Source: a bacterium
GTDB taxonomy: Bacteria > UBA8248
Reading direction: 5' to 3'
DNA: 64,000 nucleotides
Assembly: GCA_965200245.1 (NCBI GenBank)
Contig: CBDATS010000015.1
Coordinates: 32,001 to 96,000 of the forward strand
The notes beneath the pieces are model-generated. The model saw only the letters and a program-made list of their open reading frames with translations, did no database searches and was not told where the DNA came from. Shown piece by piece: positions 1 to 15,627 of the stretch. Position 1 is the stretch's first letter. Each line of letters starts with the position of its first letter. A program made the position numbers and the translations under genes.

Positions 1-1772
1 TGGGGCATGTCCGCGACGTTGCCGAAGGAAAGCTCAAAGGATTTTTTGGTGGCGAAGCGCGTCAGGTCCGGTCCGATTTTGGAGAGCTTCTCGGTGCCGG
101 GAATAACATGGCAGCCGAAACAACCACGCGTCGCCACGAGTTTCTTGCCCCGTTCATAAGAGGCGTCATCACCGAGTTTGCGGGGTTTGGGCCGATTTGC
201 TTTGGGTGTGAGACTGATGAGATAGGCAGTGGTCGCGCTCGCTTCTTCATCCGTGAGACGCAGGCTCGGCATCTTGGTGTCGTGCCAGTACGCCTTGGGG
301 TTCTTGAGCCAGCGGAACAGCCAGTCCGGCTGGATTTTGGCCCCGATATTCTGGAGAGCCGGTGCGAAATCCCGGTTTCTGTAGACGATGGGTCTACCGT
401 CCACGCCCTCGAGCGGTGGTCCGAGGTCCAGGTCCTTTTCATTGCGAATGTGACAACCCAGACACCCCACTTCCTCGAAAGTGGTTTTTCCTTTCTGAAT
501 CAGGGCAGCGTCGTCCATATTCGGGAGTGCGGCTGATTCCACCTTGCGCGGGCCTTGCCGCCAGACATACGTGGCGATGTCGATCGCTTCCTGATCGGTG
601 AAGCTGAAATACGGCATGAGGGTGCGCGGGTTGTAATCTTTCGGTTTCTTGATCCACGAGACGAGCCAGGCGGGTTCCACCTTCTCCTGGATTCTCGAGA
701 GATCCGGCCCCGTCTTGCGCAGGCCTTCCGTGCCGGGAAGGGTGTGGCATCCGTTGCAGCCCAGTTCCCGGGTGAGCGAAATGCCACGCGAGATTTGCGG
801 AGCCTCCGGGATATTGAATATCTCGGTGTGACAGCTTCTGCACTTGGTCTGCGTTTCGCTGCCGTGCAGGAGAGGGTCTTCCCAGAATTGCACGTGGCCG
901 TGGGCAGTATTGAGGCTGGTGACAGCCGTTCCCTGACCGCCATGGCAAAGAGTGCAGCCGACCTTGTTGAACTCGTGTTTCGAGAGATAAAGACGCCTGT
1001 TGGGGTGCGTGCGGAATGGTTGGGGGGCATCCTCGAAGCCCGCCCTGTTGATGCCAAGGTGACAAGTCTGGCACCGTTCCACCTTCATCACAGGCTCGTT
1101 GAAGTTGTTGCGTTCGTATTCGCGAAGGACGAGCTGCTTGATTTCGTAGGGGCGGGCGGCGATGCCCTCGAGCCGACGTTCCTGGAAGGAAATGTCGCTC
1201 GCCGCTTTCCGGCGATTTGTCTGGAGCGTCTTTAATGCTTTTTCTTTCGCCTCGATTTTCGCCTTTATGGCGTCTCTGGCGGCTTCGGCTTTCGCCGCGA
1301 CAGGTGTTATCTCGTCAAGCAGGGCTTTGGCATCGTCGACTTCTTTCTGCTCGGCTTCCTTGTTATGCCCTTGCCGGATGGCTTCCTGGAGATAGAAGTA
1401 GGACTGATCGAAAAGCGCTTTTCGAAAACCCAGTTCCTGTACCTTCTCGAAGGCGTCGAGTTCGCTCTTTGTGAGTTCTTCCCTGAGTTTTTTGAGTTCT
1501 TCGTCGTCCGAGAGTTTTTGTTCTTGCTCGGCGATTTTCTTGTCGAGTTCAGCGACCGTGGGGCCTGTGGTTTTCTGGAGTTTGGTAAGTTCTTTTTCTA
1601 CCTGCGCTTTCTCGTATGCGTTGAACTTCTTCTGGTATTGTTTCCAGGGTCTGCGCGTGAACGATTCGTCCCATACGGTCCAAAATGTCACCGCCACCAT
1701 GAAGAGCCCCAGGATGAAAAACAGAATCGGACTTGTTTTCTCTTCCGGAGGCTTGAAGTCTCTGCCTTGCAT
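1..1772 (-). CDS. Membrane-anchored multiheme c-type cytochrome, partial (3' end runs off the window)
   Basis: Not in ORF track. Manual translation from ATG 1772: MQGRDFKPPEEKTSPILFFILGLFMVAVTFWTVW (TM), long coiled coil, then six CxxCH motifs (CQTCH, CTLCH, CRSCH, CNGCH, CLGCH, CFGCH) and class I cyt c-type GPDL...WIKKPK...MP segments; frame open to the window edge. Confidence 0.9.
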   Translation of the reverse strand, partial: MQGRDFKPPEEKTSPILFFILGLFMVAVTFWTVWDESFTRRPWKQYQKKFNAYEKAQVEKELTKLQKTTGPTVAELDKKIAEQEQKLSDDEELKKLREELTKSELDAFEKVQELGFRKALFDQSYFYLQEAIRQGHNKEAEQKEVDDAKALLDEITPVAAKAEAARDAIKAKIEAKEKALKTLQTNRRKAASDISFQERRLEGIAARPYEIKQLVLREYERNNFNEPVMKVERCQTCHLGINRAGFEDAPQPFRTHPNRRLYLSKHEFNKVGCTLCHGGQGTAVTSLNTAHGHVQFWEDPLLHGSETQTKCRSCHTEIFNIPEAPQISRGISLTRELGCNGCHTLPGTEGLRKTGPDLSRIQEKVEPAWLVSWIKKPKDYNPRTLMPYFSFTDQEAIDIATYVWRQGPRKVESAALPNMDDAALIQKGKTTFEEVGCLGCHIRNEKDLDLGPPLEGVDGRPIVYRNRDFAPALQNIGAKIQPDWLFRWLKNPKAYWHDTKMPSLRLTDEEASATTAYLISLTPKANRPKPRKLGDDASYERGKKLVATRGCFGCHVIPGTEKLSKIGPDLTRFATKKSFELSFGNVADMP

Positions 1773-1992
1773 CTCGAAAAAACGCTCCCCCACCAACGTG
1801 CCGAGCGGAAATCGCGGGTTTCCACGCTGAAATCCGGCTGATTATAGGGAGGGGCAGGGCGGGCGTCAACCGCAGAACGGATAGTTTTGGCCAGGGGATA
1901 TCCGGCCTGAATACACAGAGAAAAGGCCGAAAACACGAGGCGGATCACAGGAACCGGCGAGCCTTAGTCTCCCGTAACGACCCTGTCTCAGG

Positions 1993-4900
1993 CTATTCGT
2001 TTTGGCTGCGGATGATGCCCGCGAGTTGGCCGATGATGGCGATGGAGATGGTGGGATGTTCGTGGATCAACTGCAAAAGGGGCTCTTTTTCAATGCCCAG
2101 CAGGGAAGTATCCTCGCTCGCGCGTGCGCCCGCGCTTCTGCCCTCATCACCGAAGAGCGCGACTTCACCGAAAGAAGCCGGTGGGCCGAGTGTGGCGAGA
2201 ACCCTGGATTCCCCGTTTTCCTGGTTCAGGATGATCTCGATTTCTCCCTCGACGATGACGTAGAGATAATCACAGGGATCTCCTTGCTCAAACAAAACGG
2301 TTCCCGCCTGAATCGGGATTTCTCTGGAAATGTTGCTCAGTATTTTCAACTGCTCCGCGCTCATCGTCTCGAACATGTTGACGCCTTTCAGGAAGAGGGC
2401 CTTTTCGATGGTCGAGAGCATGATTTTCTCCTGTCTGGACGGATTCTCGCCGACTCCCTCGAATCGGAGCAGTTCGCGGCGTACCTGAAGACGAACCAGC
2501 TGACTCTCGTCATTCTCCAGGGTTCTCAGGAATCCCGTGACGCTGTCATTATCTTTGCCGAAGATCTTCAGCGCGGCAACCGCCGCTTCACGTATGAACG
2601 GATTGCTCCCCGTTGCCCGCACCTCGAATTGCCCACGCCAATCAGCGTTTGCTCCAACCGCTTCGCTTTGGAGATGCTTGCCGACAGCATCGACCGCGAT
2701 GGCCTGGAGCCAGGTGTTTTCTGAATTCATGTATGTCCTGAGCACCTCTTCAATCGATATTTCGGGGATATCCCAGAGTTTCCTGCCTTCTGAAACCTTA
2801 TCGGCGGTCGATCGGCCCAGCAGCAGAGGTTCGAGAGCCAGAATCAGGAGTCTCGTGTTCCCCGTCGAGGAGAAGTTCGAGAGCGTCTCGATGGCGAGTG
2901 CCCTGGAAGATGAACCTCCCCGGGCGAGGGACTCCGACACGGTGTCCACTGTTTTCTCATCCCCAATCACACCCAACAATTCCAGCAGGACGATTTGCCT
3001 TTCCTCGACAAAATCCTCGAGCGCTTTTCTGAGCATCGTGAAATCGGGAGCGTTCTTCCGTTGTTCGATGACGTGGAGGTGGTTGATGACTTCGTAAACT
3101 TCCTTCACGTGCTTCGCGGCGAACTCGGAGAGGGAATCGACGACTTCCTGCTCGCTCATTTCCCGGGAGCCGTTTGGGGCGCCTTTGAACAGAAACGGGA
3201 TGATGAAAGAACCCAGCCCCGAACCTTCCAGAGTGAGGGTTCCTTTTCGTTTCATGTTCTTGAGCGAATCAATGGCTTGCGCTCTCACGAGGGAATCAAC
3301 GTCCGAAAGGGCGGTCAGGGCGCGTTCAAAATTCTCGCGCACGCCTCTGTTGCCCAGTTGGCGGACGCCCCTGCGCCTTATGGCCGCGCTCTCGTCCGAG
3401 GTGGTCACCTGCATGACTTCCTGCATGTGCACCTCATCCACTTCCTGGTTCATGGCGAGAATTTCTATTGCCTCCAGGGCGGCTTCGCGGACTTTCTCTT
3501 CTTCCTGGTAGAGATAGGGGATCAGGCGTCTGATGAAGCGCGGGTTCTCGAGTTCCCCCATGCAGCGGAGGGCGCAGACCCTGGCCTCCGCGTCTTCTTC
3601 GTTCAGCATCTGGTGGAGCGTTTGCAACCCGTTGGCGAGCCAGAACAGATCGTCTGAGCGTACGAGTAGGCCGACGGCGGCGGTCTTGACTTCCGGTGAG
3701 GCGCTTTCCAGGTTTTCATGCACCAGTTCCGCTATCTCTTCTGTGAGGCCGACTGTTTCCACCGCATCCATGGCGGCGCACTGGAGAAGTGGGTCATCGC
3801 ATGTGAGGTATTCCTGAAGGAGGGGCCGCATTCTCGCGTCTTCTTCGGCTCCGGGAATCCTGGCGAGGATTTTCAGTAATTCGGCTGCCGCCCGGCTTTT
3901 CCGCCGGGGGATTTCTTCGAGAATGATCGGAAAAGCCTCGCTCCCGGAACCGTCGGCCATTATCTGCGCTGTGAAGACGCATAGGTCGTCATCCCCCTCG
4001 CGAATGTTTTTTCTCAAGATCGCCATGCTGTCGCCGTCAATCGGGCCGAAGCCCTCCTTGGCGTAGCGAAAGAGTCCCAGGTTCCTCTCCTCGAGCATCC
4101 TGCGCAGCGCAGCGCCGTATTCGTGGCGCACGAAAAAGCCCGTTCCCAGATAGGCGAACGCGATGAACAGGGAGATGAGAGCCACCCAGCCGCTGCTGAG
4201 CGGGAAGAGTGCGAGTCCTGTCGGTTTGATGATGAGAAGTGCGACGCCGCTCACGATGCTGGCAACGGCTACTACCTGGCCTGCAACGAACGCGCCCACA
4301 CGACCGCGAATCGAGGGGGAGACGGCGTTGTAGAGCAGGGCATTGATGGCGTTTCGAATGGACTCCTGCAGGTTCTTGTTGTTGAAGCGCAGGAAAACGG
4401 CGGAATGGAAGCCAGGAGATACCGCCATGCCGGCGAGGCCAATGATGGTCGTGAGCGGATAAAGGAGGTTTGCCGTGCCCAGTCCGAGACGCTTTATGAT
4501 GCGCGGGGTGATGAACGTCTGGACGAGCAGCGAGATGGCACTCCCGATGGCGGTGAAGTATCCGAGGAACGAGGCGAGCTGCGCGCGATCAGGGAAGACT
4601 TCCCGAAAGACGAGGCTGTATTGGAAATCTTGAAAGCTTCTGAGGATCACCACGAGAAAACTGAAAAGCGCGAACGCGCAGACGTATTTGTTCGTCCGCA
4701 TCAGGGCAAGGTTGCCGCTTTTTGAGGCTGGCCTGGACGTTTTTCGCTTTTTGGGGGCCGCGTCGTCGATGAGGTGGTCCCTGAGCCGCCATTCGGTATA
4801 TTGCACCACCCCTATACTGACGACGATGGCTCCCATCCAGACATAGAGCAGGTTCGAGACGCTACCCAGAACGGGAATGAGCAGTGGTATGGCCAAACCG

Positions 4901-5391
4901 CCCAGAATGCCTCCGTAGCGTCCTCCCGTCAGAATAATCGGAACGAGTCGCTTGGATTGCAGGACATCCAGGTACTGGCCGTAAAGGGCGCGGAAATTGT
5001 TCGGCACCATGTTCGTGAATATTACGAACAGCGTGTGGAGTAGGGGGAATGCGACAGGCATGGCGTAGGCGCGCATGTCGGCGAAGATGAGTAGCTTGAT
5101 ACCCAGAATGAGAGCGATGAAAAAGATCAGGACGGCCTTGAACATCGCAGGAATCGAAAGTTTTTCGGTCAGGGAGGAGTAGAACGTGCTGATGAAGATG
5201 ATCATCAAGGCGTTGAATATGTACATGTACGGGAGAAAACCCGGCCCGACTTCAGAGAGGAAAAGCGCTTCAGATACGGTGAGTCCTATCGAGAACTGAA
5301 TCCCGATGAGTAAGTAGAAAGAAAAAAACACGGAGAAGACGAGCAACTCCTCTTTCTGGATATTGAAGGCTTTTTTGAGGAGTTTCGCCAT
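1993..5391 (-). CDS. Npt/TLC-like (ATP/ADP translocase-type) transporter fused to HEAT repeats and a C-terminal cNMP-binding domain
   Basis: About 12 TM segments in the N-terminal ~430 aa (QSKRLVPII..GG..GG), helical HEAT-like repeats (VRAQAIDSL, VREAALEAI), cNMP signature LFEQGD..YVIVEG..FGEVAL..RSAGARA; probable start ATG 5391 (MAKLLKK). Confidence 0.85.
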   Translation of the reverse strand: MAKLLKKAFNIQKEELLVFSVFFSFYLLIGIQFSIGLTVSEALFLSEVGPGFLPYMYIFNALMIIFISTFYSSLTEKLSIPAMFKAVLIFFIALILGIKLLIFADMRAYAMPVAFPLLHTLFVIFTNMVPNNFRALYGQYLDVLQSKRLVPIILTGGRYGGILGGLAIPLLIPVLGSVSNLLYVWMGAIVVSIGVVQYTEWRLRDHLIDDAAPKKRKTSRPASKSGNLALMRTNKYVCAFALFSFLVVILRSFQDFQYSLVFREVFPDRAQLASFLGYFTAIGSAISLLVQTFITPRIIKRLGLGTANLLYPLTTIIGLAGMAVSPGFHSAVFLRFNNKNLQESIRNAINALLYNAVSPSIRGRVGAFVAGQVVAVASIVSGVALLIIKPTGLALFPLSSGWVALISLFIAFAYLGTGFFVRHEYGAALRRMLEERNLGLFRYAKEGFGPIDGDSMAILRKNIREGDDDLCVFTAQIMADGSGSEAFPIILEEIPRRKSRAAAELLKILARIPGAEEDARMRPLLQEYLTCDDPLLQCAAMDAVETVGLTEEIAELVHENLESASPEVKTAAVGLLVRSDDLFWLANGLQTLHQMLNEEDAEARVCALRCMGELENPRFIRRLIPYLYQEEEKVREAALEAIEILAMNQEVDEVHMQEVMQVTTSDESAAIRRRGVRQLGNRGVRENFERALTALSDVDSLVRAQAIDSLKNMKRKGTLTLEGSGLGSFIIPFLFKGAPNGSREMSEQEVVDSLSEFAAKHVKEVYEVINHLHVIEQRKNAPDFTMLRKALEDFVEERQIVLLELLGVIGDEKTVDTVSESLARGGSSSRALAIETLSNFSSTGNTRLLILALEPLLLGRSTADKVSEGRKLWDIPEISIEEVLRTYMNSENTWLQAIAVDAVGKHLQSEAVGANADWRGQFEVRATGSNPFIREAAVAALKIFGKDNDSVTGFLRTLENDESQLVRLQVRRELLRFEGVGENPSRQEKIMLSTIEKALFLKGVNMFETMSAEQLKILSNISREIPIQAGTVLFEQGDPCDYLYVIVEGEIEIILNQENGESRVLATLGPPASFGEVALFGDEGRSAGARASEDTSLLGIEKEPLLQLIHEHPTISIAIIGQLAGIIRSQNE

Positions 5392-5396
5392 GGTGA

Positions 5397-7106
5397 TCAC
5401 TTCTGGAGTGGTGGATGTGGTCCTTTCGTGTGCATTTCGCACCCCGGCTTCCCTGGAGCGGAAGCGGGCGTGAACCGACTCATTCTAGACCAGGTTTTTT
5501 GAGTTTTCCATGAGTAGAAAGACAGGGAGTCCTCGGTCCATTGTGCGGAATTCCGGCTGAACCTGTCCCAGCGGCTGTTCGCGCAGAGGCCGCGAACCGG
5601 GTCTGCGTTGCCCTCGGCGATCAGGCCGTTTAGCGGCGACAGGTCGAATTCGGCCCGAGTCGGCACTCTGCCGCGTTCCTCGGTGGAGAGGAGGGACAGA
5701 AAACGCGCGAACGCATCGAAAGCGCCGCGAATCTTCTCGTGCAATCGTTTCTCGCCTCCCGCATAGGCGACCAGGGATGGTGTCAAGGGTGCGTAGCGGT
5801 TCAACTCCATCCCCCCCTCCGTTCGGTTCGTGATGCTGTCGACGCCGACGACTCCGATGGAATCATCCGAAAATTCCACCGGGAACAACCTGGCGTAAAC
5901 TGTCTCCACGACTGGACCCTCGCGACCGAGTCTCAGATGAACGCGGACACCGAACAGGCCGAAATCGATCCAGTTGCATACGAGCGGCTGGTAGCGGACG
6001 TTGAACACTTGCTCGTAGTTTTCAATGGCGTTTGCCAGCAGTCGAACCGTATCCTCACGTGTACGGGACGATTCACGCAGTTCGGATTCCAGTCTGGGCG
6101 TGCAGTTCTCGATCATCTGACGCAAAACACCCGGGGAAGCGCCCCCTTCCACCTTGCGAGTCTTGATGTAGGCCTTGGAAGTCGCCGGGCTGGCCAGGAA
6201 GCGATGAACGAGCCAGTCCATCGCCTGGATGTGCTCGTCTTTTTCCGGGTCGATGGACAGGGGCAGGGGAATCGCGTTGTCCATGGCGACCCCGAGCCTG
6301 CTCAAGTCCGGAAGACCGAACCCGTTGGAGTAGATGTCCAGACGGAAGCAACCGCGTCCCCCGCCGCCTTCCTGTGGTTTAACGAAGAAAGTCCGCGCTC
6401 CCCATTTCCTGGACAGAGTGGAAGCGCAATCCAGAATATCTGCCGCTGTGTCTGCAGGTTTTCCGCCGTCTATTTCCACTGCCTGATAATCAGCCGTCAG
6501 ACGATGTACACGCGCATCCGTTTCGGAGTGTTTCCCGTCTGCGCCGTTTCCATTCAGGAGTTCATATGTGGTTCTTTTGTTGGAAAGCGGCCCGCCAGGA
6601 GCGGTGAGAGGGCCCGGCACCACGACAATGCCCCGTTCCTCCAGTACCTTGGCGAGGTTTGCGTCGTAGAGGCTTCTTTGGGCGGTCTGGCTGATAACGA
6701 GCAGTTCTTCGGGCGCCTGTGCGGCGCGGGCCAGGAGTTCTTCCCGCCGGTTCAGAACCCTGACGGGTATGGACAGGCCCATTTGGTTCAAGTGCGCCTG
6801 CACCACCCGCGCCGTCTCCATGGTGAGGGGCAGCCGGCTCGGGGAGCCGTCCAGCAGGAGGATTTCTTTCGGCAGCCGATCAGGTTGCGAGCCGTCCAGG
6901 ATGCGCAATTCTGCGAATCGGGGCTCACGCGACGCCCATCGATTCAGGTTTTCGATAAGCGATTCGTTCAGATCGCCGTCAGACGAGTCGAACTCCCTGG
7001 CTACCCTGAGTAAATCCCAGGTGCCGCCACTCGCATCCGGAGTGAGATGATAAAGCGAAGGTTCCCGCTTGATGGGAGGATGACTCGGCATTTTCTGTGA
7101 GGCCAA
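5397..7106 (-). CDS. Divergent ATP-grasp-fold protein, function unknown
   Basis: 569 aa; SNKRTTYELL, FFVKPQEGGGGRG loop, EFD...AEGNA (E-x-N); start TTG 7106 or ATG 7091. Confidence 0.65.
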   Translation of the reverse strand: MASQKMPSHPPIKREPSLYHLTPDASGGTWDLLRVAREFDSSDGDLNESLIENLNRWASREPRFAELRILDGSQPDRLPKEILLLDGSPSRLPLTMETARVVQAHLNQMGLSIPVRVLNRREELLARAAQAPEELLVISQTAQRSLYDANLAKVLEERGIVVVPGPLTAPGGPLSNKRTTYELLNGNGADGKHSETDARVHRLTADYQAVEIDGGKPADTAADILDCASTLSRKWGARTFFVKPQEGGGGRGCFRLDIYSNGFGLPDLSRLGVAMDNAIPLPLSIDPEKDEHIQAMDWLVHRFLASPATSKAYIKTRKVEGGASPGVLRQMIENCTPRLESELRESSRTREDTVRLLANAIENYEQVFNVRYQPLVCNWIDFGLFGVRVHLRLGREGPVVETVYARLFPVEFSDDSIGVVGVDSITNRTEGGMELNRYAPLTPSLVAYAGGEKRLHEKIRGAFDAFARFLSLLSTEERGRVPTRAEFDLSPLNGLIAEGNADPVRGLCANSRWDRFSRNSAQWTEDSLSFYSWKTQKTWSRMSRFTPASAPGKPGCEMHTKGPHPPLQK

Positions 7107-7129
7107 GGTTCTGTTCTCGATACCGATAC

Positions 7130-8299
7130 CTAGACCAGCGACTTGCGCTGGCGCATGAAATGCTTGACTACCCAGTCCGCGATGGCGCCGCCCACCGTGC
7201 TCTCGCCAGCAATTGAGGAGGGGTTCGAAGCCACGCAGCTCAAGGCGTGTACCCCTGTCATCCGGTACGCCTCCTCGCGCGCGTGTGCCTGGTTTGCGAG
7301 CTTTCCTGAAATGAGCATGTTCTCTTCCTCTACCTCCAGATGACTTCTGATCCAGTGAACGACAAGCGTTGATTCCAGCGTATCACATGCGCAGATTATC
7401 AGCCCTCTGCGCGCGAGCCAGTTCTTGAACCAGGGGTCGCTGGCCACTTCGAGACTGGAGTCGCATGACGGAGAATCTGCCAGCTCCGCGATGACGATCT
7501 CTCCGTGCGCGCAGGCGTGGCGGAGCAGATTCCGGGCGCAACGCCTTACCTGGCTTGCGGGTACCCCGCTGGTCGTTGCGAGGCCCGCGTCGACGAAATC
7601 CCACCCCATCCTCGCGGAATCGAAAAAACCGAGCGGTCTCCCATAATTCACTTGCATGAGGTCCCGCATGCGCCCTGTGCCCGTCAGTTTTGCGTATGTG
7701 GCATGAATGCCAGAGGAGTGGAGGGCGGAGGCCAGCGATGAGGCGCAGGTCGTCTTGCCTACATCCATCTCGGAGCCTGTGACCAGGACGATGGGGGTGC
7801 AGGGGATTCCTTCCTCGTCTACAGCACAACGGGTATCAGGAATGACTGGCAGATGAGACAGCCGGGCGGGTTCGCCTTGCAGCGCAACGCCCCCTTTCAC
7901 CTGAATTTTCACGCATTGCGTTTTCGGATTGGAGCGGATACCGCAGACGCCACCGACGTTCAAAAGGTCGAGCACGACTCCAGGCTCTGCAGGAGGTTCC
8001 GGCTTGTGGCCCGAAACGCTGCGATTCGCGTACCGACCGCCGATCGCAACGAGCACAGTCATTCTTTCGCGCAACCTCTCCTCGTTTGTCTTCCAGGCGT
8101 CTTCCGCTCCCTGGAGGATCTCAAGTGCCTCAAGATGATCGATGGGGGCATTCACGGGCACGGCGACGACTTCGCCCAGCATGATTCCGTTCGCGGGAAC
8201 GGGCCCGGGAGCGGGCGTGAAATCCGTCTGAAATGTATAAGGACTATCAGGGGAGAGGAACAATCCCCGGACGATGGATGCGCAAAAATCGATTTTCAA
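7130..8299 (-). CDS. DUF1611-like P-loop protein
   Basis: GSEMDVGKTT Walker-A-like motif, GGRYA, AKLTGTG, DFVDAG..TT, VIAELAD. Confidence 0.7.
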   Translation of the reverse strand: MKIDFCASIVRGLFLSPDSPYTFQTDFTPAPGPVPANGIMLGEVVAVPVNAPIDHLEALEILQGAEDAWKTNEERLRERMTVLVAIGGRYANRSVSGHKPEPPAEPGVVLDLLNVGGVCGIRSNPKTQCVKIQVKGGVALQGEPARLSHLPVIPDTRCAVDEEGIPCTPIVLVTGSEMDVGKTTCASSLASALHSSGIHATYAKLTGTGRMRDLMQVNYGRPLGFFDSARMGWDFVDAGLATTSGVPASQVRRCARNLLRHACAHGEIVIAELADSPSCDSSLEVASDPWFKNWLARRGLIICACDTLESTLVVHWIRSHLEVEEENMLISGKLANQAHAREEAYRMTGVHALSCVASNPSSIAGESTVGGAIADWVVKHFMRQRKSLV

Positions 8300-8312
8300 T
8301 TTTCACCGTGTC

Positions 8313-9779
8313 CTAAGCAGAAGAAAGAGCGAAGTGGTTCGTGAACGCATCAATCATTTCTCGGGCGTTTTGGGATATCTGCGCCTCTCCCCCTTCATAG
8401 ATGGATGAAACGCCCTCCAGCCTGCAGAAGGTTCCCCTCGGTTCCACTATGGTGCCTTTCGCCGGGGGAGAGCAAGTGACCAGAACCTCACCCTCGTCTT
8501 GTACGTCTCCCAGCCGGTAGCCCTGCCGGAGAAATTCGGACCTCCCGTTTTTGAGGGTGTAAATTCCGGGTGCCAGCGAATGACCGATTTTCACCCTGGC
8601 AGTGCTCGTGTTCCGAATCAATAGCTGAAAACCGGACAAGTCCGGCGCATCAAGCACGGTGAGCAAATTCCGATGTGCCTCGAGGGCGGCACCAGGCTTC
8701 AGAAACTCGGCCAGATGCCAGTAAGTGGTGGTGGGAGAGTCGCCGTATATTTCTTCAAGCTCGGTCATCAGTTGTGTGGTTCCCAGGATGCGCGGGTTGA
8801 GTTCGAGAGCATAGGGTTCGTTCTCATGAACGATGAAGTCGACGCCATATATTCCCCGGTAGCCTGCCTCGGCGATCCATTCTCCGATTTTCAGGGTGAA
8901 TTCCTTGATTTTGCGTCGACTTTCCCCCGAAACCAGCCGATACGCCGCATAGTCACTACCTGCGTAATCGAAGCGGTGCATGGAGCAGCCGGGAATTCCC
9001 GTGAACATCACAGATGGGTGTGACATCCAGGGCTCGCCTTCGTAAATCACTCCCGCAGCGCCGACAGCAGGACCGCTCAGAAAGGTGCTCACAATCACCT
9101 GTGCATTGGAACCCAGCTTCTGGAGGAGTTCTTTTCGCTTGTCGGCGAGTCCCTCGGCAGAATCGATGAGGTGCGTCTGGTTGCCCGAGGAACCAATGCG
9201 CTCTGAAACGATCATAATGGGGCCGAATTCTTCTAGGTGGCTGGGTCCGAGTTCGCACAGCGTCACGACATCGCCCGGAGGAACACCGAACCCCGCTTCG
9301 GACGCCCGGTGGCGGAACGCTACCTTGTCGTCGAATCTCGTCTTGATTTCCACCGGATTCGCCAGGATGTGGACCCTGCCCTCGGCTTGTTCTGCGAGTT
9401 TGCCCAGAAATTCCGTGGAACGGTAGGGGATGATGTAGCGGGGCGCATCCCCTGACGAGAGATATTCACGAATCTGCGCCCCCAGTGCTCCTTCGTACGC
9501 CTCCACGAGCGATGAATGCGTCCACACGATTCGTCTGCTTTGTCCGCGTTCCACGGAAAAATAGCGCAGGCGCCTGTCCCACTCGGGTCCGTCGAGTCCA
9601 TAGTCGCAGGCGATGAGGTAATCAAGGGGGACGATGTTCTCCATCGTAATCGAATCGACCGCGCGCAGTCCCTGGAAGCCGAATGTCGCTCCTTCGGGAA
9701 CGGCGGAAGTCAGTATGCCGTTGAAATCGTTTTTTTCTGGAGGGGGCAAGGGGAATGTTCCCTCATCTGGAATCATCAA
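8313..9779 (-). CDS. ATP-grasp ligase (PGM1-like peptide ligase-type C-terminus)
   Basis: FDDKVAFR, GSSGNQT loop, GYRGIYGVDFIV...LELNPR. Confidence 0.8.
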   Translation of the reverse strand: MMIPDEGTFPLPPPEKNDFNGILTSAVPEGATFGFQGLRAVDSITMENIVPLDYLIACDYGLDGPEWDRRLRYFSVERGQSRRIVWTHSSLVEAYEGALGAQIREYLSSGDAPRYIIPYRSTEFLGKLAEQAEGRVHILANPVEIKTRFDDKVAFRHRASEAGFGVPPGDVVTLCELGPSHLEEFGPIMIVSERIGSSGNQTHLIDSAEGLADKRKELLQKLGSNAQVIVSTFLSGPAVGAAGVIYEGEPWMSHPSVMFTGIPGCSMHRFDYAGSDYAAYRLVSGESRRKIKEFTLKIGEWIAEAGYRGIYGVDFIVHENEPYALELNPRILGTTQLMTELEEIYGDSPTTTYWHLAEFLKPGAALEAHRNLLTVLDAPDLSGFQLLIRNTSTARVKIGHSLAPGIYTLKNGRSEFLRQGYRLGDVQDEGEVLVTCSPPAKGTIVEPRGTFCRLEGVSSIYEGGEAQISQNAREMIDAFTNHFALSSA

Positions 9780-9947
9780 AAAATCCGTAGGCTGCGAAAT
9801 CGAAAACAGGCGATTCTAATTCGATAACCTCGTGGATATCAACACGAATCTTGTTTTGGAAGGCGACGATTTCCCTCTTGAAATTTCTGCAACGCCCCGC
9901 TTGCTATGGTAGGATATTGAGCGTTTCAACCAAAAATTACGCCATCC

Positions 9948-10898
9948 ATGCGTAAGAGTGAATGTATGCCCGAAGAGAGTAATATGCCCGATTCAGCTTC
10001 AGAAACTGATGAATACCCGGTGATGTCTGAATCGCAGCTTCGGTGGGAGAAATTCCGCCGCAGCTTGATGCGGGCCAAACCGGCGTTGCTGGGCGGCGTT
10101 TTTCTCATCCTCCTGACGTTTGTCTCTCTTTCTGCTCCTGTTATCGCGCCGCAAGATCCGAGTCGGGTTGACGTGAACCTGCGCCTGAAGCCTCCCGTCT
10201 GGGTGGAGGGCGGAAGCGTCAGCTATCCGCTGGGAACCGATGCGCTCGGCCGGGATATTCTGAGCAGGCTCATGTACGGGGGACGTGTCTCCATTCTGGT
10301 GGGCTTGAGTTCGGTGGTGATTTCAGGGGTGATCGGTATCGTTCTGGGACTTGTTTCAGGCTTTTTCGGTGGAAAGATTGACGACATCATCAGCGGATTT
10401 TCCGAAATCCAACTGGCGTTTCCCTTCATGCTCCTGGCCATTACGATCATGGCGGTCGTCGGACCGGGACTGCCCAACATCATCGTGGTGCTGGGCATCA
10501 GTCGCTGGGTGGCGTATGGCCGAGTGGTAAGGGGGCAGGTAATCTCGATAAGGGAGCGTGAATTCGTGGAAGCCACCCGCGCTCTGGGCTATCCCTTGTA
10601 TCGCATATTGTTCATGCAGATTTTGCCCAATACCCTCTCGCCGCTCATCGTCATCGCCACCTTCGCCGTGGCGGGGAACATCATTTCCGAATCCTCGCTG
10701 AGCTTTCTGGGGCTCGGCGTTCCGCCCTCGGTCGTCACTTGGGGAGGGATGTTGTCCGAAGGACGCGAGTATCTGCGCGGTGCCTGGTGGATGGCGACTT
10801 TCCCCGGTCTCGCAATCATGGCGACTGTTTTGAGCATCAACCTCATTGGCGACTGGCTACGGGACTACATGGATCCCCGCCTCGGCGATGACATGTAG
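9948..10898 (+). CDS. Peptide/nickel ABC transporter permease (DppC/OppC family)
   Basis: PLGTDALGRDILSRL, EFVEATRALG (EAA loop), LSFLGLG; start could be a downstream ATG. Confidence 0.93.
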   Translation: MRKSECMPEESNMPDSASETDEYPVMSESQLRWEKFRRSLMRAKPALLGGVFLILLTFVSLSAPVIAPQDPSRVDVNLRLKPPVWVEGGSVSYPLGTDALGRDILSRLMYGGRVSILVGLSSVVISGVIGIVLGLVSGFFGGKIDDIISGFSEIQLAFPFMLLAITIMAVVGPGLPNIIVVLGISRWVAYGRVVRGQVISIREREFVEATRALGYPLYRILFMQILPNTLSPLIVIATFAVAGNIISESSLSFLGLGVPPSVVTWGGMLSEGREYLRGAWWMATFPGLAIMATVLSINLIGDWLRDYMDPRLGDDM

Positions 10899-10922
10899 AT
10901 GCCTGGTTTTTGGGGGATATAC

Positions 10923-12470
10923 ATGAAAAGGATTCTGTTATGCGGGTTTTGCCTGCTGCTCGTGGCGCTCGCCGCCTGCGGACGCGAAACGAGAAAGGGG
11001 CCCTTCACGATTCTGCTCTCGGTGGAGGCCAATACGCTTGATCCCCAGTTCGCGACTTCCACCATCGAGTGGAGCATATTGATGAACGTGTACGACCCGC
11101 TTATTGAACGACGCGCGGATATGACGCCGGGACCTGCCCTGGCCGAGCGATGGGAGGTGGACAAGACGAAAAAGATATGGACGTTTCATCTGCGCAAGGG
11201 GGTGAAGTTTCATAACGGGGAGCCGTTCGACTCGGAATCCGTGCGCTACACCTTCGAGCGGATGCGTGACGAGAAACTGAAGTCCCGTATTACGGTGCAT
11301 CGCAGGATTCACTTGGACAAGATAGAAATAGTGGGTTCCCACACCGTGAAGATTCATACGAAGCGCCCGGTCTCCATCCTGCCGGTCTGGATGGTGAATG
11401 CGTTCATGTTGCCGCCTAGGTACTATTCTTCCACCCCTCCCAAGGAACTTTTGAAGAAACCCGTGGGCACGGGGCCCTACAAGCTGGTGCAGTGGATCAA
11501 GGACGATCGCATCGAGATGGAGGCCAACGAGGATTGGTGGCGAGGCAAACCCGCCATTGAAAAGGTTGTATGGCGGCCGGTAGCCGAGGCTTCGGCCCGC
11601 ATTGCGGAACTTGAAACGGGCGGAGCCGACGTCATTATGAACATTTCGCCCGATCAGTCGAAAGCGATAATCGAGAGCGAAGAAGGCCTTCAGTTCAAGG
11701 GGGCACGGGGAGGGCGCAGGATTTACCTGGGGGTTCGTACAGATCACGGAGTGCTCTCCGACGCTCGCGTCCGCCGGGCACTGAACCATGCGATAGATTT
11801 CGAGGCCATCGCAAAGAACGTATTTCTTGGCCACGGTTCGCGAATGAGGAGCATCGTAAACCCACCGAACGCCGACCCTGCAATCAAGGCGTACGCCTAC
11901 GACCCCGCAAAGGCAAAGGCGCTTTTTGCCGAGGCGGGGCTGAGAGATACGAATGGAGACGGTGTCCTGGATGTGAACGGAAAGACATTTGAACTGAAAC
12001 TCGATGTTCCATCATCCAGGTATCTGAAAGGAAAGGAATTAGCAGAATTTATTTCGGCATATTATCGCGCTGTCGGCGTCCATGTAGAAGTAATTCCCCT
12101 GGAGTGGTCCGTATTTCTCGCCAGAAGAAGAAAGAAGACGCTGGCACCCCTGTATTTTCACGGGTTCAGTTCTGCTTTCAACGAAGAACTCGACCTTGGC
12201 GTGTTGCGCCCCAATCTTTTTGCGAACCTCACCGGATGGAAGAACCGGGATTTTATCCGAAAATACAGAAAACTGGGGCAGACGTTCGACCCCGTGGAAC
12301 GCAGGCGGATCAGCTACCGGATGCAGCGCATCGTTCATGAGGAAAGCCCATGGGTATTTCTTTGGAACCAGTACGATTTTTTTGGCTTGAGCGCGAGAAC
12401 GCAGTGGACTCCCAGATCGGATGAGAGAATCTACCTGCCCGCGATTCGCCTGAAAGATGTGAAAGAATAA
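10923..12470 (+). CDS. Peptide ABC transporter substrate-binding lipoprotein (family 5)
   Basis: Lipobox LAAC after ATG 10923; LRKGVKFHNGEPF, PVGTGPYK, VRRALNHAID. Confidence 0.93.
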   Translation: MKRILLCGFCLLLVALAACGRETRKGPFTILLSVEANTLDPQFATSTIEWSILMNVYDPLIERRADMTPGPALAERWEVDKTKKIWTFHLRKGVKFHNGEPFDSESVRYTFERMRDEKLKSRITVHRRIHLDKIEIVGSHTVKIHTKRPVSILPVWMVNAFMLPPRYYSSTPPKELLKKPVGTGPYKLVQWIKDDRIEMEANEDWWRGKPAIEKVVWRPVAEASARIAELETGGADVIMNISPDQSKAIIESEEGLQFKGARGGRRIYLGVRTDHGVLSDARVRRALNHAIDFEAIAKNVFLGHGSRMRSIVNPPNADPAIKAYAYDPAKAKALFAEAGLRDTNGDGVLDVNGKTFELKLDVPSSRYLKGKELAEFISAYYRAVGVHVEVIPLEWSVFLARRRKKTLAPLYFHGFSSAFNEELDLGVLRPNLFANLTGWKNRDFIRKYRKLGQTFDPVERRRISYRMQRIVHEESPWVFLWNQYDFFGLSARTQWTPRSDERIYLPAIRLKDVKE

Positions 12471-12471
12471 A

Positions 12472-13389
12472 ATGGGCGCCTATCTTTTCAGACGATTTCT
12501 CAGGGCCGTCGTGGTCGTGATCGGTGTGAGCTTCATTTCTTTTGCCGTTCTCTTCTTGTCAGGCGATCCGACCGATACCATGGTGGGTGAGGACTGGACG
12601 GTGGAAGAAGTCCAGAAACTCCGCCAGGACCTGGGCCTCGACAAGCCATGGTTTGTTCAATACGCACTTTACGTGAGCCGGGCCGTACAGGGAGATTTCG
12701 GCGAAAGCCTGCGCTACCACCAGCCCGCGTTTGAACTCATCATGGAGCGATTGCCCGCGACGCTGGAACTTGCCCTCGTGGCGCTGGTTCTTTCGATTAT
12801 CCTGGCGTTTCCGTTAGGTATCATCAGCGCGACGCAGCGTGGTTCTCCCTATGATCACGGGGGAATGCTTTTCGCGCTCCTGGGTCAGTCGGTCCCCGTG
12901 TTCTGGCTCGGTCTGATGCTCATCCTTGTTTTCGGTGTGACGCTGAGGATGCTGCCCGTCAGTGGCAGAAGCGGCTGGGAACATCTCATTCTACCCGCCA
13001 TTGCGTTGTCTACCTATTCGATTGCCAGAAATACACGGGTGGTGCGAAGTTCCATGCTGGAGGTTCTGCGACATGAATATGTGAAAACCGCCCGCGCGAA
13101 GGGTCTCTCGGAGTGGTGCGTCATCAACATGCATGTGCTCAGAAACTCCATGATTCCGGTGATCACCATTATCGGCCTCGAATTCGGTCATCTGCTTGGA
13201 GGAGCAGTGATCGTCGAGACGATTTTCGCATGGCCGGGAGTGGGGAGATTGTTGATTCAGGCCGTCTATGCCAAGGATTTTCCCCTCGTACAGGCTTCTG
13301 TGACTATCACCGCCCTGATATTCGTGTCTTTGAACCTGATTGTTGATTTGATGTATTCCGTCCTCGATCCAAGGGTGAGACTCCATTGA
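12472..13389 (+). CDS. Peptide ABC transporter permease (DppB/OppB family)
   Basis: LGLDKP, GDFGES, YVKTARAKGL, VETIFAWPGVG. Confidence 0.93.
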   Translation: MGAYLFRRFLRAVVVVIGVSFISFAVLFLSGDPTDTMVGEDWTVEEVQKLRQDLGLDKPWFVQYALYVSRAVQGDFGESLRYHQPAFELIMERLPATLELALVALVLSIILAFPLGIISATQRGSPYDHGGMLFALLGQSVPVFWLGLMLILVFGVTLRMLPVSGRSGWEHLILPAIALSTYSIARNTRVVRSSMLEVLRHEYVKTARAKGLSEWCVINMHVLRNSMIPVITIIGLEFGHLLGGAVIVETIFAWPGVGRLLIQAVYAKDFPLVQASVTITALIFVSLNLIVDLMYSVLDPRVRLH

Positions 13390-14324
13390 GCAGAACCGCC
13401 TATTTCTGGACGCCGGAATCTCTCCGGCACGACAACATGGGGCACGTGGAAAACGTAGAGCGCGCCAGACGCCTCGCGCCCGAGAGAATTCTCCCGCAGG
13501 TTCCCTCCCTCAGACACATGGAAATCGCGCCCCACGACGCCGGGAAGTGGGTTTTGCGGGTACATGAGGAAACGCACCACCGCTTCGTGCGCGAAACGTG
13601 CGAGAGTGGCAGGTGCGTTCTGGATGCCGGAGACACGCCAGCTGGCCCCGGGAGCTATGAAGCTGCTCTCGCCGCTGTGGATGCAGCCCTGAGTGCTGCG
13701 GATGCCGTCGTGGGTGGTGTGGTCGATAACGCATTTTGCGCGATGAGACCGCCGGGCCACCACGCCTTGCCATTTCAGTCAATGGGTTTTTGCCTGTTCG
13801 CAACTGCGTCCATCCTTGTCCGGTATCTTCAGGAACAACATGGTCTTCATAGAATCGCCGTGGTGGATTGGGACGTCCACCACGGAAACGGAACGCAGCA
13901 TATCTTCTGGCGCGATCAGGAAGTGCTTTTTGTCTCGATGCATCAACACCCCCACTACCCAGGCACGGGCCTTGCCATTGAAATCGGGGAAGGGGCAGGT
14001 GCGGGCAAGACGCTCAACATTCCCGTCGCTGCGGGAACATCCGAAGAAGAATATCTCAAAAAATTCCAGGAGAATGTCATTCCGGCCATTGAGGCGCACG
14101 ATCCCGAAGCTATCGTCGTATCGGCGGGTTTTGACGCGCATCGTGATGATCCGCTTGGTGGGTTGTTGCTCACCGAAGCCGGTTTCTCCCGCCTGACCGA
14201 ATGGGTGAAGTCGGTTGCCGCAAGCTTTTGCGGTGGGTGCCTTATCTGCCTGCTCGAGGGTGGATACAATCTTGAGGCTCTCGAGCGTTCCGTCCTTGCG
14301 CATGTACGAGAGCTTTCTGCGTAG
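13386..14324 (+). CDS. Histone deacetylase / acetylpolyamine amidohydrolase family protein
   Basis: RPPGHHA, GFC, DWDVHHGNGTQ, SAGFDAH..D, LEGGY; TTG start overlaps the permease stop. Confidence 0.92.
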   Translation: MSRTAYFWTPESLRHDNMGHVENVERARRLAPERILPQVPSLRHMEIAPHDAGKWVLRVHEETHHRFVRETCESGRCVLDAGDTPAGPGSYEAALAAVDAALSAADAVVGGVVDNAFCAMRPPGHHALPFQSMGFCLFATASILVRYLQEQHGLHRIAVVDWDVHHGNGTQHIFWRDQEVLFVSMHQHPHYPGTGLAIEIGEGAGAGKTLNIPVAAGTSEEEYLKKFQENVIPAIEAHDPEAIVVSAGFDAHRDDPLGGLLLTEAGFSRLTEWVKSVAASFCGGCLICLLEGGYNLEALERSVLAHVRELSA

Positions 14325-14469
14325 CTGACTTCTCCCTGGATTCCCAATCAGGCCAAAACCCGGTTTGTTGACGAACTGGAACAACAGAGCCCTTTGCACC
14401 AGGATTGTGAGCGTGGTTTCATGTATCTGTCTTGGACGCGGGAAGAAAGTTGAATGATAGGGGTTTGAA

Positions 14470-15618
14470 ATGAACGGGGAAGGTCGGGAATTCAGGCGCA
14501 GGGGGACTGTGTATTCCAGCGGGTGGGGGTGGATCGGCTGGTGCGTTTTTTTGTTGGGTGTCTCCCTCGCGTGGCTGTTCGCAAAGGGCTATTTCGATAA
14601 TCTTCACGATCCTGATGCCGTGCCCCGCGTCGTCACCCCACGGGGGGATCTCGCCGCCGAGGAAAAATCCAATATAGAGCTCTTTCGTCTCTCCTCGCCT
14701 TCGGTTGTCTACATCACGAGATTGGCGATGCGGCGCGACAGGTTCAGTCTCAATTTGTTCGAAATCCCGCAAGGCACAGGCTCGGGCTTCGTTTGGAATG
14801 ATCAGGGCCACGTCATAACGAACTTTCACGTCATCCAGGGGGCGAGTGCCCTGCGTATCACCCTAGCGGATCATTCCGAGTGGGATGCCCGTGTGGTGGG
14901 CATAGCGCCGGATCAGGATTTGGCGGTTCTCTTTATCAACGCACCGAAAAACCGCCTGAAACCCATTGCCATCGGGCAGTCCTCCAACCTGCAGGTGGGC
15001 CAGAAGGTATTTGCTATCGGCAATCCTTTCGGACTGGACCAAACGCTCACGACAGGAATCATCAGCGCCTTGGGTCGTGAGATAGATGGCGTGTCGGGTC
15101 GCAAAATCAGCGGCGTTATCCAGACCGACGCCGCGATCAATCCCGGCAATTCCGGAGGACCGCTTCTGGACAGCGCTGGTCGGCTGGTAGGCGTGAACAC
15201 CGCCATTTTCAGTCCCTCAGGCTCCAGCGCAGGGATAGGGTTTGCGGTTCCCGTGGATACGGTGAACAGGGTCATCCCCCAGTTGATTCGCCATGGCCGC
15301 GTCATCAGACCGGGGCTCGGCATCCACGTGGCCGACAGGGGAACGGCAGAGCGCTTTGGCATACGGGGCGTGCTGATCATCCGCGTACAGAAAGGCAGCT
15401 CGGCCGAAGGCGCAGGGCTGCGTGGTACCGGTAGAAATCGGGCAGGGAGCCTCGTGCTCGGCGACGCGATTGTGGGCGTGGAGGAGCGTTCGGTCACATC
15501 GCTCAATGATTTGCTGGACGCTCTTGATGAACATAAGGTGGGCGACGTCGTGGAACTCCACCTTCTACGCGACGGAAACCGGATGAGCGTGAACATAAAA
15601 CTGCAGGCACTGGGTTAG
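14470..15618 (+). CDS. HtrA/DegP-family trypsin-like serine protease with one PDZ domain
   Basis: N-terminal TM, GTGSGF, TNFHV, DLAVL, GNSGG. Confidence 0.93.
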   Translation: MNGEGREFRRRGTVYSSGWGWIGWCVFLLGVSLAWLFAKGYFDNLHDPDAVPRVVTPRGDLAAEEKSNIELFRLSSPSVVYITRLAMRRDRFSLNLFEIPQGTGSGFVWNDQGHVITNFHVIQGASALRITLADHSEWDARVVGIAPDQDLAVLFINAPKNRLKPIAIGQSSNLQVGQKVFAIGNPFGLDQTLTTGIISALGREIDGVSGRKISGVIQTDAAINPGNSGGPLLDSAGRLVGVNTAIFSPSGSSAGIGFAVPVDTVNRVIPQLIRHGRVIRPGLGIHVADRGTAERFGIRGVLIIRVQKGSSAEGAGLRGTGRNRAGSLVLGDAIVGVEERSVTSLNDLLDALDEHKVGDVVELHLLRDGNRMSVNIKLQALG

Positions 15619-15627
15619 GAGCGTGGC

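Follow-up and report, generated by a model that had tools for sequence, protein, structure and literature searches.

We analysed a 64,000-nucleotide stretch of bacterial DNA (the window; G000:C15:32001-96000) from a metagenome-assembled genome (MAG) of 3.68 Mb that is 95.8% complete, and found that four adjacent minus-strand genes in it, termed here A, B, C and D, form a lineage-specific elaboration of a rare two-gene module, A+C, for which no earlier description was found. ATP-grasp ligases write many kinds of amide bond, in cell walls, cofactors, antibiotics and protein tails, and the products of A and C are both predicted to belong to this class, A from its sequence and C from its fold, as a preliminary description of the window had supposed. 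We tentatively propose that the two-ligase module would write a short peptide or a peptide tail, with add-ons that differ from lineage to lineage. The four genes are as follows, with lengths in amino acids (aa).

8313-9779, minus strand: gene A, 488 aa; start TTG at 9779, next ATG at 9776
7130-8299, minus strand: gene B, 389 aa
5397-7106, minus strand: gene C, 569 aa; relatives have about 538 aa
1993-5391, minus strand: gene D, 1132 aa from the ATG at 5391, or 1149 aa from an upstream GTG; the full open reading frame (ORF) is 1993-5442

The common strand and the gaps that the preliminary description had reported (13 nt between A and B, 23 nt between B and C and 5 nt between C and D, the last measured to the ATG at 5391) are confirmed by the ORF coordinates, and the motifs that it quoted are present in the translations (GVDF..ELNPR in A, GSEMDVGKTT in B, VKPQEGGGGRG and AEGNAD in C). 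Homologue counts support all four as real genes, with 56 proteins for C, 60 for B and 65 for A, and with D orthologues in 34 related genomes; G+C content is even across the cassette at 0.53-0.60.

Gene C encodes a sequence orphan. Its product matched no Pfam family at E<=0.1, its family profile found no Protein Data Bank (PDB) sequence at E<=0.1, and an exhaustive HMMER search of 1.84 billion representatives returned only 44 proteins, all of them members of its own family or fragments. An AlphaFold (AF2) model was built on a 38-sequence alignment (pLDDT 86, pTM 0.87), and Foldseek gave 355 ATP-grasp-type matches to it at E<=1e-3, with D-Ala-D-Ala ligases (Ddl) and biotin carboxylases at the top. 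When the model was superposed with VIA-align over residues ~75-534, the Z scores were 19.9 for ArgX, 19.1 for LysX/ArgX, 18.9 for DcsG, 17.1 for Ddl, 16.9 for RimK and 15.1 for GshB, with TTL/TTLL proteins in the middle ranks (Z 10.7-12.9). The ArgX/LysX superpositions had an rmsd of 3.1-3.3 over 270-276 residues, and relative to these enzymes C is longer by about 75 residues at the N-terminus and by a helical insert of some 80 residues. Invariant in all 38 sequences are F241, K243, P244, G247-G250, G252, D488, E498 and N500, which fall in the motifs FVKPxxGGGGxG and D488...E498-x-N500; judged by motif, these residues presumably take the roles known from Ddl, namely the ATP-binding lysine, the glycine-rich loop and the D...E-x-N metal site. 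The 569-aa protein thus models as an ATP-grasp enzyme, which was the check that the earlier claim called for, and we conclude that C is predicted at the level of the fold to be a genuine ATP-grasp protein. Two oddities of this family were also seen. A protein of 1355 aa (P0148) gave 17 separate matches to C-profile positions 439-486, and looks like a repeat protein derived from a C-family segment, or like an assembly artefact, and one C homologue of the Omnitrophota type (G051:C182:30407-31990) showed one in-frame TAG in a whole-genome search.

The product of gene A is more readily placed from its sequence. It matched Pfam ATP-grasp_3 with 30.2 bits against a cut-off of 23.2, and the profile of its family found carbamoyl-phosphate synthetase in the PDB (6e-9) along with pyruvate and biotin carboxylases, 7r8p and BesA. 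Weak family matches were to the amino-acid ligases BesA, LdmS and MfnD and to carboxylases. Across 28 sequences K146, D150, K152, S197, G199, D314 and N328-P329-R330 are invariant, and E326 and S198 are conserved in at least 90%; the lysine, the glycine-rich loop and the D/E-x-N metal site of ATP-grasp enzymes are retained in A as in C, and database sources label the homologues only as 'ATP-grasp domain-containing protein'. These matches argue for an ATP-grasp ligase of the carboxylase / L-amino-acid-ligase type. The suggestion that A is PGM1-like gained no support from the PDB matches, there being no PGM1 entry among the 8 PDB matches of A at E<=1 or the 36 of the A-family profile at E<=0.01. 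When A and C were compared with hhalign no relation was detected (probability 0.15%), which points to two distinct activities.

We scanned for relatives of C in one genome per species across 185,579 species, which yielded 99 stretches of which 80 were kept, and typed the loci by tblastn with all four proteins. Type 1 comprises L002-L026 and L032, from records labelled Nitrospinota or 'Tectomicrobia' and one unlabelled record, and in these loci the order A-B-C-D is found wherever the contig allows. Type 2 comprises 54 distant loci, labelled in their records as Omnitrophota, Elusimicrobia, Planctomycetia, Desulfobacterales/Thermodesulfobacteriota, KSB1 and a few others. It can be seen that A lies directly upstream of C in 52 of the 54, the two misses being loci in which C is within 350 nt of the contig start, and that the two genes often overlap (a gap of -4 nt). 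B and D were absent from all 54 type-2 loci by tblastn. We conclude that A and C are a conserved unit across phyla and that B and D are additions in one order. The four-gene set of the preliminary description is therefore co-inherited within the window's order, whereas only A and C co-occur across phyla.

A third gene regularly precedes the pair in the distant loci. A MATCAP-family gene was found within 1.5 kb upstream of A in 36 of the 41 type-2 loci with room for it, frequently overlapping A. It matches Pfam PF08014 with 152.8 bits (cut-off 27) and scores 173.5 bits against TIGR02421, below the cut-off of 338.65; TIGR02421 is a family that we take to be linked to RimK-like ligases in proteobacteria. 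The residues of the MATCAP/QEGLA metal site, H203-E204-H208 (HExxxH) and E234-E235-G236 (EEGLA), are invariant in 19 of 19 sequences, and the same HExxxH/EEG motifs are described for the tubulin carboxypeptidases TMCP1/2 in the accessible part of PMC10499314. This constant partner opens a reading in terms of peptide or protein tails that was absent from the preliminary description. By profile search MATCAP was absent from all three type-1 genomes examined (G000, G053 and G054), whereas the type-2 controls G051 and G052 matched at 1e-141 and 3.5e-143. B gave the reverse pattern, being present in type-1 genomes and absent from two type-2 genomes; B and the MATCAP protein are unrelated by hhalign (probability 0.12%).

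Other genes recur around the module in type-2 loci. An SPL-like radical-SAM gene lies upstream of it in 19 loci, and in the gene map CstA immediately follows C in 17 of the 19 loci that make up the CstA cluster. RNase PH, Ham1, fumarase, GH57, an aminotransferase and others in the type-2 flanks were rejected as parts of the module, being housekeeping genes or cases of lineage-specific synteny. In most of the Desulfobacterales-type loci (L062-L079) two tandem MATCAP-like genes precede A, and in 11 loci of this type a conserved gene of 270 aa, which matches neither Pfam nor NCBIfam, lies upstream on the other strand. P0218 (775 aa), a protein distantly related to A, is a fusion of Radical_SAM and ATP-grasp_3 domains, which echoes the SPL-like gene of the 19 distant loci.

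A potential explanation for two different ligases with a peptidase is a make-and-break polymer system for storage or for the cell surface, cyanophycin- or poly-glutamate-like, in which A and C would extend and branch a poly-amino-acid and the peptidase would be its depolymerase. We take such a system to have a likeness to cyanophycin synthetase, and RimK, a poly-glutamate writer, is among the fold matches of C. However, there is no Mur-ligase-type domain, the module is rare (99 stretches in the 185,579 species genomes, and C in only 1 of 69 genomes of one distant phylum) and nothing points to a polymer; we consider this explanation very improbable. Two ATP-grasp genes in a row could likewise recall a graspetide-type cluster, one for a ribosomally synthesised and post-translationally modified peptide, in which two macrocyclases act on a ribosomal precursor as in microviridin, and the graspetide ligases MdnC, AMdnB and PsnB are indeed among the lower fold matches of C (Z 11.6-12.6). 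Yet better fold matches lie elsewhere, the gaps of 13, 23 and 5 nt leave no room for a precursor inside the operon, and no locus type has a conserved small ORF within 6 kb of A-C, the only conserved groups among the 738 small ORFs surveyed there in 58 loci being translated tRNA genes. A graspetide cluster is, of all the explanations considered here, the one to which we give the least credence.

The AF2 model of B (pLDDT 90.2) consists of a beta-rich N-terminal domain of about aa 1-160 followed by a SIMIBI-class P-loop domain of about aa 160-389. With VIA-align the P-loop domain matched BioD (Z 12.4), DUF1611 (12.3 for 2g0t, and 11.7), CTP synthase (11.9) and DgcN (11.3) in what is effectively a tie, the DUF1611/DgcN matches being 2g0t, 2obn and 7xrj at Z 11.3-12.3, and Foldseek placed CTP synthase first (4.6e-7). 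The profile of B found only BioD in the PDB (5e-7), in an alignment limited to the P-loop region at aa 167-226. B fell below the cut-off of every curated family model scanned, with 17.1 bits against 25 for Pfam PF07755 (DUF1611), at aa 169-209 only and with no DUF1611 N-domain model matched, and 21.5 bits against 83.3 for the BioD equivalog TIGR00347. Because TIGR00347 is below its cut-off and the P-loop region alone aligns, B appears to be like this class without being BioD. Its invariant residues are K204-T206-G207, D213, D234, D237 and E272, with a GxxxxGKT P-loop. The N-domain, taken as part of the full-length model, had no fold match, and the ESM Atlas gave for it only unnamed clusters at 0.88-0.92.

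We conclude that the P-loop domain of B is predicted to be of the BioD/CTP-synthase/DUF1611 class, within which fold tools cannot separate BioD-type from DgcN-type chemistry. The likeness to this class, which includes the N-acetyltransferase DgcN, is in the fold of the C-terminal domain and in the P-loop; B differs in scoring under every family cut-off and in its N-domain, which matches nothing. The earlier label 'DUF1611-like' accordingly holds for the P-loop fold class, but the sequence match to DUF1611 itself is sub-threshold, and in the fold comparison BioD and CTP synthase score equally well. Members of the B family (60 clusters) are seen almost exclusively at this type of locus, and in the window's order only.

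The product of gene D matched HEAT_2 (81.9 bits) and cNMP_binding (81 bits), both above cut-off and with the cNMP domain C-terminal, and its hydrophobic segments are confined to aa 17-421. D gave no Pfam TLC match at E<=1; a profile of its N-domain found 9j3n, 'ADP,ATP carrier protein 1', in the PDB (E 4.2e-5 over 206 positions), and in the nearest ESM Atlas clusters TLC is found in 30-87% of members, with HEAT_2 also present. The fusion of a transporter with HEAT and cNMP domains that the preliminary description had read here is thus upheld, and we regard D as a predicted NTT-family-HEAT-cNMP fusion whose N-domain is too divergent for the Pfam TLC model. This is exactly the three-part architecture of the NTT-HEAT-cNBD fusions, which are described as widespread in bacteria and functionally uncharacterised in the accessible part of Major, Embley and Williams (2017, PMC5381601). 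D differs from them in its divergence from Pfam TLC, and linkage to an ATP-grasp cassette is not mentioned in that part of the source. The host genome has two class III nucleotide cyclase genes.

The junction between C and D has two features of its own.

5397-5489, minus strand: C-terminal 30-residue extension of C, unique to this genome by protein and DNA alignments; pLDDT <50 for residues 546-569
5482-5510, minus strand: sigma-70-like promoter-like element TGGAAA-17-TAGAAT at the 3' end of C, about 90 nt upstream of D; consensus scan 9/12

In five aligned close relatives the stop codon of C is TAA, about 95 nt before the ATG of D, and in the window this codon is TGG, which could be a real mutation or an assembly error. 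Because the stop codon has been lost in this way, the 5-nt gap between C and D, although real in the window, is peculiar to this genome; in type-1 loci with a true C stop the spacer is about 46-98 nt. Both hexamers of the promoter-like element are invariant in 6 of 6 aligned relatives. A -10-like hexamer was found at the site in 20 of 22 loci and TGGAAA upstream of it in 19 of 22, 66-97 nt upstream of D in L002-L026. The -35 overlaps conserved Ser-Trp-Lys codons, and the -10 is non-coding in the relatives. D may therefore have a putative internal promoter of its own besides read-through. When the C-D leader was folded with RNAalifold on 13 loci no convincing conserved structure was obtained (-5.1 kcal/mol, one pair with a compensatory change).

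At the other end of the cassette a second predicted promoter lies in a 168-nt divergent intergenic region.

9813-9842, minus strand: promoter-like element TTGATA-18-TAGAAT upstream of A; consensus scan 10/12, predicted only

A sequence scan found no convincing terminator between the four genes. Of the 22 complete type-1 loci, 21 have between -4 and 19 nt separating A from B (for L019 the value came out as -185), and B and C are -7 to 17 nt apart in every one; since B sits between A and C with such small gaps it must be co-transcribed with them. The single operon of the preliminary description is to this extent retained for A, B and C; for D it is uncertain.

Next to the distribution across phyla stands the distribution within the window's own phylum, the genomes of which are kin, so that the counts are descriptive and not statistical. 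Among 51 genomes C was found in 35, B in 36 and a D orthologue in 34, and the genes are always adjacent. B and C agree in 50 of the 51. D is present in 34 of the 35 C-positive genomes, the miss being at a contig end in a 67%-complete MAG, and in none of the 16 C-negative genomes, one of which has a weak match at the level of a paralogue only. Whole genera and a sister family lack the cassette, which is therefore an accessory unit. A decayed locus was found in G021, a genome of the same genus (L082, G021:C1:2738000-2757000, at about 8400-12600). Here A is reduced to fragments of aa 16-71 and 416-488, fragments of OppC also remain, and C and D are deleted, so that the cytochrome c gene follows B; B itself is full-length with 76% identity.

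The mechanism that we propose for the module is as follows. Each of the two ligases would convert a carboxylate into an acyl-phosphate and join an amino acid to it, and together they would write a short peptide on one acceptor in two successive ligations. We lean slightly towards an acceptor that is the carboxylate at the C-terminus of a peptide or protein whose gene lies elsewhere, as for RimK, LysX and TTL, because a MATCAP-type carboxypeptidase is co-translated with the ligases in other lineages, because the predicted fold of C is like those of ArgX, LysX and RimK, and because the RimABK system described below offers a precedent. The MATCAP/QEGLA peptidase of other lineages would be an eraser, a trimmer or a release step. 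In the window's order the peptidase is absent and B would have been inserted between A and C instead, presumably as a third nucleotide-dependent activation, or for a DgcN-like N-acylation, on the same substrate. Transcription of D would come from read-through and probably from its own promoter as well. D would be a carrier of the NTT family that has a HEAT arm in the cytoplasm and a sensor for cNMP, and under the control of cAMP/cGMP it may transport a nucleotide or else a charged precursor or product. Coupling of the product of A and C to the carrier D is pure inference.

A number of observations weigh against this proposal, and some of them concern whether B and D belong to it at all. The conservation of B and D beside A and C is confined to one order, in which unrelated flanking genes (cytochrome c, OppC and the family-5 solute-binding protein, SBP5) are equally syntenic; because D has its own conserved promoter-like element, a single A-D operon is uncertain; and G021 keeps an intact B beside remnants of A and without C and D, so that B may not depend on them. 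If only A and C were a functional unit, B and/or D would be neighbours with unrelated roles, kept by shared ancestry in one order, which would also agree with their absence from all 54 distant A-C loci, with the absence of B from the two distant genomes tested, and with the wide occurrence of NTT-HEAT-cNBD fusions in other contexts that is stated in the accessible part of PMC5381601. However, B is flanked by A and C at distances of -7 to 19 nt in all but one of 22 loci (L019 again being the exception, with its A-B value of -185), D follows the presence of C in all but one of the 51 genomes of the phylum (34/35 and 0/16), and the B family is essentially limited to this locus type. We therefore think it improbable that B and/or D are mere neighbours.

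The remaining points concern the product. The fold of C does not single out one kind of acceptor, because small-molecule ligases (DcsG, Ddl and GshB) score only a few Z units below ArgX and LysX; the nearest relatives of B (BioD, CTP synthase and DgcN) act on small molecules; the transporters that adjoin C, CstA in the distant loci and D here, favour a free metabolite; and the small-ORF survey of 58 loci revealed no carrier or precursor gene near the module. It is almost as probable, then, and was the reading of the preliminary description, that A, B and C are three ATP-dependent C-N bond formers that make a di-/tripeptide-like or N-acylated amino-acid compound (an osmolyte, a thiol or a signal), with D importing a precursor or exporting the product under cyclic-nucleotide control and the MATCAP-like enzyme recycling or maturing the compound elsewhere. 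The weak matches of A to amino-acid ligases (BesA, LdmS and MfnD) and carboxylases would fit such a pathway as well. On the other hand, a plain biosynthesis hardly explains why a carboxypeptidase should be co-translated with the ligases, as it is in 36 of 41 loci, those members of the MATCAP family that have been characterised all act on protein tails, the two best fold matches of C act on the C-terminus of a carrier protein, and no tailoring or precursor-supply genes are common to the lineages.

For the writing of a peptide or peptide tail, the reading that we tentatively favour, several known systems offer comparisons. In the accessible parts of PMC4741518, PMC7343187 and PMC11957791, the RimABK system of Pseudomonas is described as one operon acting on a protein C-terminus, with the glutamate ligase RimK, the retropepsin-like protease RimB, RimA and c-di-GMP. 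As far as these sources go, the likeness is of an ATP-grasp ligase co-transcribed with a protease under the control of a second messenger, and RimK superposes well on the model of C (Z 16.9). The cassette differs in having two unrelated ligases and no sequence similarity of C to RimK, in that its messenger domain is cNMP-binding and on a membrane carrier, and in that the peptidase of the other lineages is MATCAP-type and not retropepsin-type, with none in this genome. LysX/ArgX with LysW are the best fold matches of C, and they ligate an amino acid to the C-terminal residue of a carrier from which a peptidase then releases the product; C has no sequence similarity to these enzymes, and neither a LysW-like small gene nor lysine/arginine pathway genes are found around it. 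In eukaryotes, TTL/TTLL and MATCAP (TMCP1/2) likewise pair an ATP-grasp writer with an HExxxH...EEG metallocarboxypeptidase eraser. Here TTL/TTLL are only mid-rank for C, the bacterial genes are co-translated, the window's genome is without the peptidase, and no tubulin-like target is implied.

A further-reaching version of the proposal would be a bacterial writer-eraser system for amino-acid tails at protein C-termini, with A and C as the ligases and the MATCAP-type enzyme as eraser. Such a system would correspond in prokaryotes to the tubulin TTL/MATCAP cycle and might be its forerunner. A BioD-class enzyme would replace the eraser in the Nitrospinota-type variant, where tail writing would be wired to the NTT-HEAT-cNMP protein as a regulated partner or even as its target. 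We regard this version as speculative and, taken as a whole, unlikely.

No described pathway with this gene set was found in the literature searched, as the preliminary description had also stated; the amidoligase survey of Iyer et al. (2009) lies outside that search. Within the same literature no paper paired ATP-grasp with DUF1704 or DUF1611, 'QEGLA' and 'DUF1704' occurred only in unrelated work, and no Nitrospinota paper mentioned 'ATP-grasp'. ATP-grasp neighbourhoods of unknown function are already known as a kind, as is the NTT-HEAT-cNBD architecture. What is new is the fold assignment of C, the obligate pairing of A and C, the MATCAP-type partner, and the variant of the Nitrospinota type, to which a BioD-class enzyme and an NTT fusion belong. 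A protein invisible to Pfam and to PDB sequence searches thereby gains a family assignment at the level of the predicted fold, and the recurrent partner places uncharacterised bacterial homologues of the recently discovered tubulin carboxypeptidase in a biochemical setting that can be tested. The Nitrospinota-type variant is the first genomic context found for an NTT-HEAT-cNMP protein.

Several further analyses of the window gave minor results. Metatranscriptome contigs from four runs of one study matched pieces of all four genes at >=99% identity, which is weak evidence of expression because DNA carry-over in the libraries is possible; the uncovered parts of the stretch carry no weight either way. 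A complex prediction of A with residues 70-545 of C gave scores of 0.15 and 0.01 against a mark of 0.32, which is no evidence on binding in either direction. In window positions 1-16000 a scan with Rfam gave only two matches, both sub-threshold and at chance level.

The genes that flank the cassette were also inspected. On the far side of the divergent intergenic region, at 9948-14324 on the plus strand, is a set encoding an OppC-like permease, a family-5 solute-binding protein, a second permease and an HDAC-like amidohydrolase, and this OppC/SBP5/amidohydrolase set stays in synteny with the cassette in every type-1 locus that has room for it. The next genes after it, for an HtrA-like protease and a Cu-ATPase, include no ABC ATPase gene. 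Directly downstream of D, at 3-1796 on the minus strand, is a multi-haem cytochrome c gene (Cytochrom_C, Cytochrome_CBB3 and MtrC-like matches), which has a strong promoter-like site of its own at 1841-1869.

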